A stretch of 64,000 bases of DNA, from contig CABUPU010000002.1 in the NCBI GenBank assembly GCA_902493595.1, positions 9,942-73,941 of the forward strand, given 5' to 3'. The notes under the pieces were generated by a model. That model was not told the DNA's origin. It did not search any database and saw nothing but the letters and a program-made list of their open reading frames with translations. This stretch comes from an uncultured Mycoplasma sp. (GTDB taxonomy: Bacteria > Bacillota_I > Bacilli_A > RF39 > UBA660). Position 1 is the first letter of the stretch. Each line of letters opens with the position of its first letter. This document shows positions 56,394 to 63,644 of the stretch, one piece after another. The position numbers and the translations under genes are program-made.

Positions 56394-56521
56394 ACTTTCA
56401 CTTCCTTAAAGATATCTTATCACATTTTACTATTTATTGCTACTTTAAAAAATATGTTTACATTGATTATTGTATAATTATCTTTGCTGTGGTAGAATAT
56501 TTCTTACCAAAAGGGGGATAT

Positions 56522-58651
56522 ATGGATAAATTATATTTAGATTTTGATTCTGATGGTAAACTTACGATGCATATCGATGGCGATGTAGGTAAATTTATTA
56601 AAGCTATTCAAAATAAAGATGGTAAATTATTTTTCGGTTTTGAAAAAAAATTAATTGAAAATAGAAAAGAAATTGAAAAACTATATGAAGATATTTATTT
56701 GATACCTAGAGTAGATACAATTAACTCTAAAAAGGAAGAAAAAATTGAATCAATTAATGAAGAAAAATATGAGGTTTGTGATTTAGCTGTTGACATAATT
56801 TTTGATGGAAAAAACTTTTATAAGATAGTTCCTTTAGAATGGAAAGATAATGGTAAATATTTTACTTGTCTTAATACCAATTATACAAGAAGTACTGTTA
56901 TGAGTATGTATGATAGTGATTACTTAAATGATGCTTTACCAAATGTGTATTTAAATAATACAATATTACCTATAATTTTTGAAGTAAAAACCGTTGATAG
57001 AATTGATTCTTATGAAGCAAAATGTAATGTTGTTAATGGAATTCTTGATAGAATTGAACTTCCTGCGTACGCTAGAAAAATGAATATAAAATACGAGAAT
57101 GGTAAAATTATTTTAGAAAGGCCTACTACTTTAATAAAAATAAATATTCCAAAAACTGCTTCACAGATAAATTGTGAACTCGTCTCTAAATATACAAGAA
57201 ATGGTTTTTTGTATGATATATATATTCCTGACAGTGTAAAACAAGTTGATTATTTATATGATTTTTATTCCGATAAAATAAACTCACTTATTTTTGACAA
57301 AGATTTTAATGGGCAAGTTGCTAAACATGCTTTTATTTCTTCTGACTCGGTTAATAATTTAAAAATTCCTTGTAACATAGAGCTAATGAAAAGTATTATT
57401 AATTTTAGTTATGATGGTTTTACATATATATTTGGTAAAAATAGCAAATTAACAATAACCTATAAAGATGAAAATGAACTTTTAAATTTCCTAAACTATT
57501 TTATCAGATTAGATAGAAAATTAGATAGTAAAAATATTCGGTCATTATTAAAAAATTCTAGAGGAGAACTTGAAGCTGGAGTTAATTTTAAGTTTGATAA
57601 TGAAGTTTATAAAATTCCTTTATATTTTTTTAAAAAAAATGCATCATTATCTGATATTGACATTATGTTATGTGGTACTGAACTTTCTAAAAAAGTTCAA
57701 AATAAAATAAAAAAGATGATTAAAAATGATAAAGTACATTTTGTAATTGATGAATTAGAGAAAACTAAAGATCAGAATCAAGAAGTAAATAAAATTACTT
57801 TGATTGCGGATGATGTAATTGAAGAGATAAAGTCTATCAATTATTTTGGCCTTGATAAAGAAAAAGTAAATGGACAGCTTAAAGCAATTATTGACAAATA
57901 TAATGAAGATTTAGATAATTTAAAAGTTTCAAATAAAGGTTTAACTTTACATAGTAATGAGGGATTATATACAAATCTTTTATTAAAACTTAACGAGTTA
58001 AAGGATAGCCTTTATCAAAAATTTGAAAAAAATCTTGTGGTTTATGATATGCTTGATGAAGAAAATATTTTAATAAGCATTTTAAATGGTGAAGAAGTAA
58101 TTATAAATAATTCTTTAGAAAGTGATTTTTATTTACTATCAAAAAATATACTTCCGTTTGTCGAAAAAAAAATAACTGATGATTTAAGAAATTATTTAGA
58201 AAGTGAAAAACAAAAATTAGAAAATTATCTTCTTACTGGAGAAAATAAACCTTATGATGATATGGATAAATTTATTTTAAACATAAGAACATACTTGAAT
58301 ATAACACTACTTAGTATAAGAAACTATCTAAATAAAGAAGAGATCCTCGAAGTAATTAAAGATTATACAAATATGCAAATGCAAATTAATTATAAAGAAC
58401 CAATTAAAAATTATTTATCAATTTTATTGCAGGAGATAGATAAAACTAAAAAAGAGATTTTAAGTATTGACAAAACTGCTGATATTGATGACATTTTAAA
58501 TATGCTAAATATTAATTATCAAGCACTAGAAAGTATGGAAATAATTGCCCATTTAACTAATATATTTAATAAATTATATAGATTTTATTTAAATGTTAAA
58601 TATGAACGCGATTTAGATTTGAAAATGGAAAGCTATAAGATAAAATTATAG
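56522..58651 (+). CDS. Large hypothetical protein, paralog A (BspA-like LRR-type segments N-terminally, alpha-helical C-terminal half).
   Basis: The start is placed at the ATG after RBS AAAGGGGGA (MDKLYLDFD). It is preceded by a TGn-TAGAAT extended -10. No signal peptide. Confidence 0.6.
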   Translation: MDKLYLDFDSDGKLTMHIDGDVGKFIKAIQNKDGKLFFGFEKKLIENRKEIEKLYEDIYLIPRVDTINSKKEEKIESINEEKYEVCDLAVDIIFDGKNFYKIVPLEWKDNGKYFTCLNTNYTRSTVMSMYDSDYLNDALPNVYLNNTILPIIFEVKTVDRIDSYEAKCNVVNGILDRIELPAYARKMNIKYENGKIILERPTTLIKINIPKTASQINCELVSKYTRNGFLYDIYIPDSVKQVDYLYDFYSDKINSLIFDKDFNGQVAKHAFISSDSVNNLKIPCNIELMKSIINFSYDGFTYIFGKNSKLTITYKDENELLNFLNYFIRLDRKLDSKNIRSLLKNSRGELEAGVNFKFDNEVYKIPLYFFKKNASLSDIDIMLCGTELSKKVQNKIKKMIKNDKVHFVIDELEKTKDQNQEVNKITLIADDVIEEIKSINYFGLDKEKVNGQLKAIIDKYNEDLDNLKVSNKGLTLHSNEGLYTNLLLKLNELKDSLYQKFEKNLVVYDMLDEENILISILNGEEVIINNSLESDFYLLSKNILPFVEKKITDDLRNYLESEKQKLENYLLTGENKPYDDMDKFILNIRTYLNITLLSIRNYLNKEEILEVIKDYTNMQMQINYKEPIKNYLSILLQEIDKTKKEILSIDKTADIDDILNMLNINYQALESMEIIAHLTNIFNKLYRFYLNVKYERDLDLKMESYKIKL

Positions 58652-58705
58652 ACTTTCTATTTTCTTTATTGTGTGGTAGAATATTTCTTACCAAAAGGGG
58701 GATAT

Positions 58706-61335: not shown

Positions 61336-61352
61336 GAAAGGAGTGAACTTTT

Positions 61353-63644
61353 ATGGAAAAAGCTGTTAATAATGGGGTATACTTAACATTTATTTCAGAA
61401 CCAGAAATAGAAATGCCACATAAATTAAATGTTTTTAGAGAAAAAGGAATTGCTTCATCTCAAACAGAATTTACTAAATTTTTATATGGCGAAAATAATT
61501 CATACTTAACTACTTATGAACAAATAAATAGAAAACAAAGTATTGATAACATGAAACCATATAACCTAAAAAATTATTATGGTATTAGAACCATTTTAAA
61601 AACCGATGGTTTAATGAGCGAACTTATAAGGCAAAATGCAACGTTAATTAGTAATGATGAAGTAGTTTTAGGAAGTTATCCTACAAAAATAGTTACTGAT
61701 GATACTCTTATTAAATCATTAAAAAAACTCGGGTGTAATGATAAAGTATATAATGTTCCAATTGCAGAGGATATTACATCATGCCAAACTGTTACATTTA
61801 ATGATGAAGATTATATTTATATAAAGGGTAAAGATATATTTGTTAAAATTAATCCGCTTGTTTGGTACTATGATGAAGCATCAAACTCTTTAATTTCTAA
61901 AGATGTCATTTGTGCATTTTACACAAGTATTGGAATTAATGATTTTCAAAAATATGGTTATAATTTTTTAAATGAGTACTTAATTAGAGATATTTTTAAA
62001 AATAATGTAATAAGTTTAACTAAACCTGTTAATTTAATCGTGGAAAAAGACTCAAGTGAAATGTATTTACCATACGATTATGATATTGATATGGATAACG
62101 AAGGAAAACTATATTCACACGATGAAAATGAATATAATATAAATATCGATGAAAAAAAAGACTTAACTAGTTTTAATGCTTTAGAATACACTTTTAAAAA
62201 TAGTTATAAACATAATCCTATTTTTAATATAACTATTAAAGGCAATAATAAAATAGCTTATTCTCATGCACTTGATTTTGTTTCACTTGGAATAAATGCT
62301 AGAATTTCTAACATAGTTATTGATGTTAATAATTTAGTGGTTAATCATCCAGTTATTTGTGCCGGTGGTTATATAGATAATGCAAATATAAGATGTGATC
62401 TAAATCAATTTGCTACACTATATTTATCTGGTGATGTTATAGGTCATAATATATTAAAGGGTTCTAATTTAACTATCAATTATACATCAGAAACAGAAGT
62501 ATATGCTTTTCTTATTGATATAAAAAAATTAGTTAATGTGCTTAAAAAGAATGCTTTAAAAGATAAACAAATTTATTTTGATTATAAAAAAGTAGTATAT
62601 GAATGTGTTTCTTTGAAAGAGGAAGATTATAATTTTTATGATAATAATTTATTTAAACAGATAGGACTTGCAACTCTTATTTTAAATGGTCCTGAAATAA
62701 ATAAAGAAAAAGTTGAAAAGATAATTGGAAATGATGAAAATATTTTTTATACTTTTGAGGATAAAACTTTAAAAGAAATATCTAATGATTCATCACTTTC
62801 TAAAGAAGCAACCCATATTTTAGATTTAGCTAAAGAAATAATAAGTATTGATTACATTGGAATTAATAAAGAAAGTGTTCGTGAAAAAGTAGATGAAATA
62901 ATTGATGAATATAATAACCTTTATTCTAAAGAAACAAAAGGTTTATCATTATCTACGAATAGTGCTTTGTATACAAACACAGTTATTAAATTAGAAAACT
63001 TAAGAGATACTTTATACCATAATTTTGAAAAAAATGTTGATTATTATGATATATTAGATTTAATTTCTAGTTTGATTAAAAAACTTAATGATGAAGAAGT
63101 AGAATTAAATTATGAAATTTTAAATGATATTAACACATTAAATATTATTTTAAAATATAGTGAAGATAATCAAACTAAAATAGAAATTATTACTTATTTA
63201 GAAAGTGAAAGAAAGTCTATAACTGATTATTTATGTAATAAGAAAGAAATTGATTATAAAAATATTAATGATTTTATTAAAAAGTTTAGATTGTTTTTAG
63301 TACCTATACTTACAAAAGTAAGTGGCAATGTATCAAAAATAGATGTAATGGAGCAAATTAAAAATTATGCTATAAATGAAATGAATAATAAATCTTTAGA
63401 AAATAAAAATAATTATATAAGGGTTATATTAACTGAAATAAATAAAGTTAAAGAGGATATTCTTAAACTTGATAGTAGTTATACTTTCGAAGATATTGAC
63501 TATTCATCCTTCAATACAGGTAAAGAAATTATTGATTACTTAGATAGCTTATTTATAAAGTATTATCGAAAATATATTGAACTTTATGATGAAATGCAAA
63601 AACAAAATGTTTACGAGAGAAATTTAATACCTAAAATATACTAA
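61353..63644 (+). CDS. Large hypothetical protein, paralog C (divergent N-terminus; the C-terminal half is homologous to A and B).
   Basis: The shared C-terminal block is IDYxGxxKExVxxxxxxIIDxYNxxL...GLxLxxNxxLYTNxxxKLxxLxDxLYxxFEKN. Confidence 0.6.
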   Translation: MEKAVNNGVYLTFISEPEIEMPHKLNVFREKGIASSQTEFTKFLYGENNSYLTTYEQINRKQSIDNMKPYNLKNYYGIRTILKTDGLMSELIRQNATLISNDEVVLGSYPTKIVTDDTLIKSLKKLGCNDKVYNVPIAEDITSCQTVTFNDEDYIYIKGKDIFVKINPLVWYYDEASNSLISKDVICAFYTSIGINDFQKYGYNFLNEYLIRDIFKNNVISLTKPVNLIVEKDSSEMYLPYDYDIDMDNEGKLYSHDENEYNINIDEKKDLTSFNALEYTFKNSYKHNPIFNITIKGNNKIAYSHALDFVSLGINARISNIVIDVNNLVVNHPVICAGGYIDNANIRCDLNQFATLYLSGDVIGHNILKGSNLTINYTSETEVYAFLIDIKKLVNVLKKNALKDKQIYFDYKKVVYECVSLKEEDYNFYDNNLFKQIGLATLILNGPEINKEKVEKIIGNDENIFYTFEDKTLKEISNDSSLSKEATHILDLAKEIISIDYIGINKESVREKVDEIIDEYNNLYSKETKGLSLSTNSALYTNTVIKLENLRDTLYHNFEKNVDYYDILDLISSLIKKLNDEEVELNYEILNDINTLNIILKYSEDNQTKIEIITYLESERKSITDYLCNKKEIDYKNINDFIKKFRLFLVPILTKVSGNVSKIDVMEQIKNYAINEMNNKSLENKNNYIRVILTEINKVKEDILKLDSSYTFEDIDYSSFNTGKEIIDYLDSLFIKYYRKYIELYDEMQKQNVYERNLIPKIY

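Follow-up and report, generated by a model that had tools for sequence, protein, structure and literature searches.

Among described families of recombining paralogs, the bab and sab genes of Helicobacter pylori are almost the same at their 5′ (and 3′) ends and diverge in between, form chimeras, carry alleles that move between slots, and vary in presence or absence between strains. Here we analyse a tandem gene array with a similar design in a 64,000-nucleotide stretch of DNA (hereafter the window; positions 9,942 to 73,941 of contig CABUPU010000002.1, assembly GCA_902493595.1) from an uncultured gut bacterium deposited as a Mycoplasma sp. The first two genes of the array, paralogs A and B, share a promoter/ribosome-binding site (RBS)/start block, which we call the leader, and differ in their bodies. 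We show that the genes are mosaic, that their copy number differs among strains and that their variability is focused on a central solenoid. The array proteins are a new, unnamed family without an annotated domain that behaves like known recombining paralog families. The explanation that we consider best, and which has in our view the better chance of being right, is that the leader is a junction module, kept both by its role in expression and by anchoring recombination, and that the genes encode variable recognition proteins.

Paralog A (56522-58651, forward strand) encodes 709 amino acids (aa) and paralog B (58706-60862, forward strand) encodes 718; the list of open reading frames (ORFs) gives an upstream GTG for each, and the ATG starts were chosen from the RBS spacing. 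A 60-mer quoted in the original prediction occurs exactly twice in the window (56488-56547 and 58672-58731) and had no match in 100 dinucleotide-preserving shuffles. The exact identity between A and B in fact covers 61 nucleotides (nt), at 56488-56548 and 58672-58732 on the forward strand, and the bases flanking it differ on either side. The nucleotide alignment of A and B is 75.6% identical overall and the leader is its longest identical run, while the longest run in 2000 column shuffles of the same alignment averaged 22 nt, with a maximum of 47. Past codon 9 identity falls sharply, to 69% at the nucleotide level over the first 50 codons. Since the 61-nt run tops the column shuffles and identity drops right after codon 9, the predicted combination of an identical promoter/RBS/start block and a diverged body is confirmed.

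As read from the sequence, the leader holds, in order, an extended −10 box (TGgTAGAAT, 56490-56498 in the first copy), a short leader, the RBS AAAGGGGGA, the ATG and codons 1-9 (MDKLYLDFD); the ATG codons at 56522 and 58706 lie inside the two copies. The promoter resembles a vegetative sigma-A extended −10 promoter, not one for sigma-E or sigma-K. The second copy begins 20 nt past the stop codon of A, and the A-B junction contains no terminator, the first terminator-like hairpin being found only at 63643. The leader repeat is the left edge, or junction module, of a 2,184-bp tandem duplication unit made of one leader and gene A. It is not the sole conserved piece: a 48-nt exact word common to A and B (56810-56857 and 58997-59044, forward strand) encodes KNFYKIVPLEWKDNGK with a family-invariant Trp and coincides with a patch of low synonymous divergence (dS), and a 41-nt exact word (58355-58395 and 60557-60597, forward strand) encodes IKDYTNMQMQINY in the conserved C-terminal domain. 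Over the whole A-B gene pair dS is 0.66 and non-synonymous divergence (dN) 0.22, with dS distributed in patches (0.16-0.30 in two blocks versus 0.6-1.3 elsewhere).

The proteins A and B are 66% identical, as expected from the predicted range of roughly 60-70%, and the more distant paralog C (61353-63644, forward strand, 763 aa) is 28% identical to each of them. C has a fuller N-terminal domain, with motifs YYGIR, GSYP and INPLVW, and follows a small gene for a membrane hairpin protein with two transmembrane (TM) segments (60859-61335, forward strand, 158 aa; hereafter the 2-TM protein), the ATG of which overlaps the TGA of B. This tandem arrangement is as predicted, but the count of three paralogs is not, as there are at least five. 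Paralog D (5′ part at 63706-64000, forward strand) runs past the end of the window, is 766 aa long on the source contig, and is 42% identical to C and ~30% identical to A and B; on the same contig (ENA ERZ857791 NODE_55, 169 kb) it is followed by a fifth paralog, E. A block of ~93 nt recurs at the C/D and D/E junctions with 2 mismatches, and the sequences diverge abruptly after it (63625-63715 of the window and positions 10900-13450 of L030, from the source contig beyond the window). It holds the final codons of the gene before it (IPKIY*), a terminator hairpin, TTGCAA-17-TATAAT, an RBS and ATGAAT; in the window the terminator-like hairpin 3′ of C (63643-63669, forward strand) overlaps the promoter-like TTGCAA-17-TATAAT (63653-63681). 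The D/E pair thus repeats the A/B design with a junction block of its own.

We compared the array with 30 related loci from gut metagenomes and metagenome-assembled genomes (MAGs) of the ‘Mycoplasma sp. CAG:472’ lineage, all of them short-read assemblies (loci are numbered with L; W is the window genome). Of this set, 21 stretches came from a scan of human-gut metagenomes with a leader pattern. The whole set comprises 22 genes of full length and 34 instances of the leader, which all strains conserve in slots 1 and 2 (the positions of A and B). The array sits at the same site in all genomes, with a divergently transcribed gene for a membrane-anchored SH3_3 protein (55761-56393, reverse strand) as its left flank, a CotZ-like gene further upstream, and NUDIX hydrolase and penicillin-binding protein (PBP) genes just downstream. 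The SH3 protein is 97-100% identical among W, L001, L002 and L003, even where the paralogs of the strains are up to 40% different, whereas the paralogs are mosaics of 56-100% and vary independently of each other. Relative to L001, L002 and L003, respectively, W is 99, 89 and 61% identical in A, 74, 92 and 62% in B, 62, 63 and 92% in the 2-TM protein, and 96, 58 and 77% in C. Sliding-window nucleotide identity between W and L001 shows sharp intragenic switches: A remains at 98-100%, C at 95-100% and the 2-TM gene at 69-81%, and B changes from 64-84% in its first two thirds to 90-99% in its last third.

Exchange between the slots is seen in several ways. The leader polymorphisms ttc/acc, aaaagg/aaatgg and gatat/gattt each occur in both slots, and many slot-1 genes combine the upstream sequence of the SH3 side with a B-type 5′ coding end. 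One allele (≤5% divergence) occupies slot 1 in L009, L012 and L016 and slot 2 in L001 and L020. Clusters built from gene segments are incongruent: the slot-1 gene of L024 groups with A except in its first 400 nt, where it is B-like; that of L025 deviates only in segment C1; the slot-2 gene of L002 equals that of W except in C1; and the slot-1 gene of L017 equals the slot-2 gene of L001 in segments N and C1 and departs from it in the middle. A PHI-type test was strongly significant, with a neighbour incompatibility of 0.329 versus 0.427±0.003 in 200 permutations of site order. Copy number varies as well. In five single-copy loci (L009, L012, L013, L016 and L017) one gene stands behind the SH3-side upstream region and leads directly into the 2-TM gene. 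When one 2,184-bp unit was removed from L001 in silico, L009 aligned to the product as one colinear 5.3-kb high-scoring segment pair with 98.3% identity, which is what homologous recombination between two leaders would produce. Some A/B-type copies are truncated, namely slot 2 of L003 (12155-13873), slot 1 of L029, and copies in L015 and L028, with 561, 230, 235 and 302 codons, respectively; L003 has a split D paralog as well (578+202 aa). The truncated A/B-type copies may be pseudogenes or sequencing or assembly errors, and the occasional pseudogenes look like decay, not switching.

The original prediction had offered gene conversion or selection as alternatives. The slot-shared alleles, chimeras, shared leader polymorphisms, one-unit deletion and PHI-type test argue for recombination; selection is considered below. 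Copy number and sequence do vary across strains, as the original prediction proposed to check; leader identity is not special to the gene pair of this genome. Two points limit the case for recombination. The two leaders of one genome differ at 0-5 of 61 nt, which is no smaller than the differences in the same slot between strains, so that the leader identity does not require concerted homogenization. Ordinary constraint on expression signals therefore explains much of the leader conservation, and the hyper-diverse bodies are as anomalous as the identical leaders. Furthermore, some chimeras in the short-read loci may have been induced by strain mixture or repeats; the same haplotypes recur, however, in independent samples, and reads longer than 61 nt bridge the leader repeat.

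It is possible that constraint is the whole story, that is, purifying selection on the −10 box, the spacing, the RBS and nine codons, with no recombination between the copies. The leader consists almost wholly of recognizable signals (extended −10 box, RBS and start), it is kept over species-level distances (in L003 and partly in L004), and, as noted above, it differs within a genome as much as between genomes. Long conserved modules also appear to be a habit of this genome, as a near-identical promoter/RBS block at 47286 and 48230 precedes unrelated proteins. Constraint alone, however, leaves unexplained why synonymous sites and spacer bases are identical at a body dS of ~0.66, and it accounts neither for the slot-shared polymorphisms and slot-swapped alleles nor for the precise deletion of one unit; moreover, the B-like 5′ end of the chimeras reaches beyond the leader. 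We thus regard it as unlikely. The leader could also be kept as a cis-regulatory RNA (attenuator- or riboswitch-like) or as a repressor operator with the core TGGTA-N10-TACCA, a 5-bp inverted repeat that overlaps the −10 box and extends to 7 bp in slot 2 of L014. This is very improbable: predicted folds were no better than those of shuffled sequences (z −0.01, 0.18, −0.79 and 0.78), the locus has no Rfam match, the palindrome is lost in L004, and a transcript of B that begins downstream of the −10 box would not include the hairpin. The shuffle-level folds and the absence of an Rfam match in the locus largely refute the RNA structure part of this proposal. In the L014 variant the GGTAGAA/TCTTACC inverted repeat of the window (56491-56508) is a perfect 7-bp palindrome, GGTAAAA/TTTTACC. 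Finally, mis-joins in short-read metagenomes might have created the identical block, the mosaics and the differences in copy number, given that all the sequences are metagenome assemblies, that several contigs have low coverage and that the exact repeats of 41-61 nt within and between genes are potential switch points. We give hardly any credence to such an artefact, as the window lies on a 169-kb contig at ~20× coverage, the two-copy layout with the same leader was obtained independently in L001, L002, L014, L023-L026 and L029, single reads span the 61-nt repeat, and where strains diverge, the segment is not a copy of the genome's other paralog.

We therefore prefer to see the leader as a junction module that serves both expression and recombination. 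The leader would be near-identical for two reasons: it carries the extended −10 box, short leader and strong RBS together with a structural N-terminal strand, and it would serve as a homology anchor where copies recombine. Unequal crossover between two leaders would lead to the loss or gain of a whole unit, and short conversion tracts starting from the leader or from internal conserved words would generate 5′ chimeras, leave low-dS patches and carry alleles from one slot to the other. The rest of the mosaicism may be supplied by allelic recombination or replacement between strains. The outcome would be an array in which ends and junctions are conserved and bodies are mosaic and highly polymorphic. 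If so, the locus offers a clean natural example of short junction modules (promoter, RBS and first codons) that act as both expression signals and recombination anchors.

The diversity is unevenly distributed along the genes. Nucleotide diversity reaches 0.26-0.43 at nt 620-1100, as compared to ~0.1 at nt 1580-1940 and 0.07 in the scanned interval that contains the leader. Among 135 distinct A/B-type proteins, entropy peaked in the central domain and had its minimum in the C-terminal domain. Of the central-domain sites, 15% lie above 1.5 bits; most of these belong to loops and strand ends within residues 210-278, and the hydrophobic ‘I.IP’ core positions are invariant. The ratio dN/dS, the windowed calculation of which had been suggested with the original prediction, peaks at 0.85-0.97 (residues 119-146 and 207-231) and at ~0.7 (residues 348-374 and 662-691), and stays below 1 in every 30-codon window. 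The proposed selection for variant proteins is therefore not demonstrated.

We built two AlphaFold2 models, the second of them of A with 69 sequences (mean predicted local distance difference test score, pLDDT, 74.8). Its predicted layout begins with a small beta region at the N-terminus and a disordered linker (residues 55-99), which are followed by a beta/alpha solenoid (154-410), modelled confidently with pLDDT mostly >85, and a helical bundle (427-709). The predicted helical and more conserved C-terminal half is thus borne out, both by the helical bundle and by the low entropy in this region. Likewise, as predicted, hydropathy analysis found no signal peptide, hydrophobic N-terminus or TM segment in A, B or C; no paralog has a lipobox or an anchor, and the distant relatives inspected have none of these features either. 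The claim of ‘BspA-LRR-like N-terminal segments’ fared worse. The solenoid is central (~154-410), A, B and C have no match to LRR_5 (PF13306) at E≤1, and hhalign comparison of the family profile with the window's own LRR_5 protein gave a probability of 0.4%. The hhalign result rejects homology to BspA LRR_5, and the label survives at most as a predicted ‘solenoid with leucine-rich repeat (LRR)-like periodicity’. The window protein used in this comparison (33021-34364) is a genuine BspA LRR_5 protein. A HEPN-like R-x-H motif, read from the sequences in the C-terminal domain, was dropped because A and C do not conserve its His.

Structure and sequence searches of PDB and BFVD gave no significant match. 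When PDB sequences were searched with three family profiles, designed helical bundles were the only ones to come up, and Foldseek searches against PDB (performed twice) and BFVD gave no match at E≤0.001; the best, non-significant matches of the solenoid were TLR2 (E 0.09), followed by a BspA protein of a phage (E 0.3). The family itself is narrow: a profile made by aligning A, B and C with six A homologs matched 86 proteins among 1.84 billion cluster representatives, and look-ups of clusters gave the family no names beyond ‘hypothetical protein’ or ‘unknown’. About six of the 86 are full length, and most others are proteins of 550-630 aa that align only to the C-terminal ~290 residues. These shorter relatives also have the N-terminal motifs G[IV]RP, YGEYPQ and W..V.PI.W (with the family-invariant Trp), and are without the central domain. 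A further homolog search with a profile of the distant family yielded only 3 proteins. Three of 69 family members, none of them A, B or C, match DUF6273 (PF19789) with E 0.0025-0.1, below the 23.5-bit cut-off. Two publications describe DUF6273 of gut phages as a receptor-binding fold that is C-type-lectin-like (PMC10743442; bioRxiv 10.1101/2024.10.15.618418). We take the similarity as a lead suggested by sequence, not as membership. As for a phage origin, tblastn of A and of one distant relative found nothing among 50,697 phage records, and a scan of IMG/VR found no relative of the family; the idea of a phage-borne family is rejected on these absences.

The 158-aa 2-TM protein probably acts together with the array proteins. 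It has a maximum hydropathy (KD19) of 2.8, as compared to 1.2 for A, B and C, and two adjacent hydrophobic segments (~residues 41-85) between K-rich helical termini, both of which are predicted to be cytoplasmic by the positive-inside rule. The start of its gene overlaps the TGA of B (ATGA), and this overlap, TAAAATGA, is found in every strain, including the single-copy ones, implying translational coupling of the 2-TM protein to B. The protein is itself strain-variable (62-92% aa identity). It has a weak PHROG holin match (E 0.031, below threshold), and no endolysin gene is adjacent.

What the array does can be proposed only with low confidence: the proteins may be recognition modules without export signals. 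The hypervariable central solenoid would bind a fast-evolving ligand, and the conserved helical C-terminal domain would provide a common output or assembly function. The functional reading that we tentatively prefer is a cytoplasmic sensor repertoire that, with its membrane partner, faces phages or other mobile elements. Its more specific form is rather doubtful, namely a new anti-phage or anti-mobile-element system in which a germline-encoded cytoplasmic repertoire, diversified by recombination, signals to the co-translated 2-TM protein. Several results weigh against the sensor proposal. A, B, C and the 2-TM protein have nothing above threshold in Pfam, NCBIfam, PADLOC or PHROGs, and no match at E≤1 in PADLOC-DB v2; domain searches found no enzymatic or NTPase domain in the array proteins; the locus lies among housekeeping genes, not in a mobile island; and the distant relatives (contexts L005-L008) are single-copy genes with no conserved neighbours and without a 2-TM neighbour, a 158-aa protein beside the relative in L005 being unrelated to the 2-TM protein of the array.

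Alternatively, the proteins could leave the cell by a non-classical route, as variable surface adhesins or antigens that are either placed on the spore surface after synthesis in the mother cell or released via the holin-like 2-TM protein. The apparent LRR-like periodicity of the solenoid and the sub-threshold similarity of the N-terminal domain to DUF6273 are consistent with this, as are the hypervariability and paralog shuffling, which resemble those of surface-antigen families. A gene for a CotZ-like cysteine-rich coat protein lies 1.6 kb upstream, syntenic in all loci, and spore-formers are predicted among related uncultured Bacilli orders (PMC10868615). The weak holin match (E 0.03) of the 2-TM protein would fit release. 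However, no paralog or inspected distant relative carries any of the export or anchoring features listed above, the promoter looks vegetative and not sigma-E or sigma-K dependent, the holin and DUF6273 matches are below threshold, and a toxin-antitoxin pair and the SH3 gene lie between the CotZ-like gene and the array. Export is, in our opinion, not likely. What remains of the probability after the sensor and export proposals falls to a function not yet imagined. Whatever the function, the locus is one of the strongest strain-level diversity hotspots of the organism and comprises ~12 kb of coding sequence without a recognizable domain, which makes it a candidate determinant of strain-specific phage or host interactions; the array can also be used as a strain marker. 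If the proteins are indeed cytoplasmic sensors with a membrane partner, they would represent a new type of defence architecture.

The organism is prevalent in the human gut, as judged from hundreds of near-identical protein clusters from independent gut samples. A 99%-identical relative of A is present on FR899415.1 (‘Mycoplasma sp. CAG:472’), and the locus was also found in three further gut Bacilli MAGs; we found no mention of CAG-472 in the literature. The window contains core genes for PriA, MnmA, Der, Lon, a MurE/F-like ligase, Ddl, DnaG, Dxs, FtsW/RodA, 6S RNA (40757-40942) and one tRNA, from which it follows that the organism is walled, uses genetic code 11 and is not a true Mycoplasma. 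The CotZ-like protein (54434-54871; cysteine-rich, 145 aa, Spore-coat_CotZ E 2.9e-11, syntenic in all related loci) suggests that the lineage may sporulate or keep remnants of coat proteins. A RelB/YafQ toxin-antitoxin pair (54980-55565) between the CotZ-like and SH3 genes is present in W and L001; the same interval contains a 433-aa ORF in L002 and a 97.6%-identical 422-aa ORF in L003, indicating an insertion/replacement polymorphism beside the array.

Other parts of the window also contain repeated 5′ blocks and tandem families. At 1400-4900 there is a five-copy tandem family of DUF1016/YhcG PDDEXK nucleases, in which ~300-aa and ~210-aa forms alternate (including 2107-3015, 3031-3663 and 3679-4581); the two 300-aa copies are 81% identical, and their 53-nt RBS/start block is 100% identical (2071-2123 and 3643-3695), the same pattern of identical 5′ end and diverged body as in A and B. 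A 54-nt promoter/RBS block (TTGACT ... TGTGTTATCAT ... AAAAAGGGGGA) at 47286-47339 and 48230-48283, 98% identical, precedes proteins of 234 and 182 aa that have no detectable similarity to each other and no Pfam match; long conserved promoter modules are therefore not restricted to paralogs here. Four tandem ORFs of ~240-290 aa at 48843-51943 have no Pfam match apart from one weak anthrax-LF-like one, and those at 50188 and 51053 are 71% identical. This region includes a second strain-variable hotspot (49600-51200), 48-71% identical between strains with flanks of >95%. The window also encodes a bacterial serpin (36983-38158, E 1e-59) and a 643-aa protein with an ALK/LTK glycine-rich domain (9225-11156, E 4e-40).

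How, then, does the array compare with known diversifying systems? The array is not a set of targets of diversity-generating retroelements (DGRs): a repeat search of the whole window found no template/variable repeat pair, only paralog-to-paralog similarity, and no reverse transcriptase domain was found among the ORFs scanned, which were part of those in the window. As neither a reverse transcriptase nor a template repeat was seen, diversification is by recombination and not by a DGR. The distant relatives do recall DUF6273 receptor-binding domains (gut phages, DGR targets, ‘tentaclins’) in their ‘W..V.PI.W’ and ‘G[IV]RP’ motifs, but the matches are sub-threshold, the order of motifs seems permuted and the family is not in phage collections. 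The array resembles anti-phage sensors, such as the LRR or tetratricopeptide repeat (TPR) sensors of NLR-like Avs with small TM effectors, in having no export signal, a variable solenoid, strain-level variability and a multi-TM partner. It differs from Avs-type systems by the absence of effector domains (STAND/NTPase, nuclease or other) and of any PADLOC match, and in that four to five paralogous ‘sensors’ are placed in one array at a fixed site of the core genome.

The vsp, vlp and vsa families of Mycoplasma are likewise tandem arrays with a conserved promoter/RBS/N-terminus and variable bodies, and occur in host-associated relatives of Bacilli with small genomes. Those families, however, encode lipoproteins with a conserved signal and lipobox, and switch by site-specific inversion or repeat slippage. 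In the array no recombinase, invertible promoter or simple-repeat tract was seen, and the copies appear to be co-transcribed. Indeed, no phase-variation switch was found, as all copies have intact starts and RBSs and there is no simple-repeat tract or promoter flanked by inverted repeats; nor do A, B and C show the export signal or anchoring of a surface-antigen family. The babA/babB/babC (and sabA/sabB) genes of H. pylori differ from the array in being dispersed and in encoding signal-peptide-bearing outer-membrane adhesins with a known ligand, whereas the array is tandem and its products have no export signal. What the two have in common is conserved ends, recombining copies, and presence or absence by strain. 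The array shows the marks of a recombining paralog family: conserved junctions with divergent interiors, chimeras and slot exchange, and changes of copy number at the repeat.

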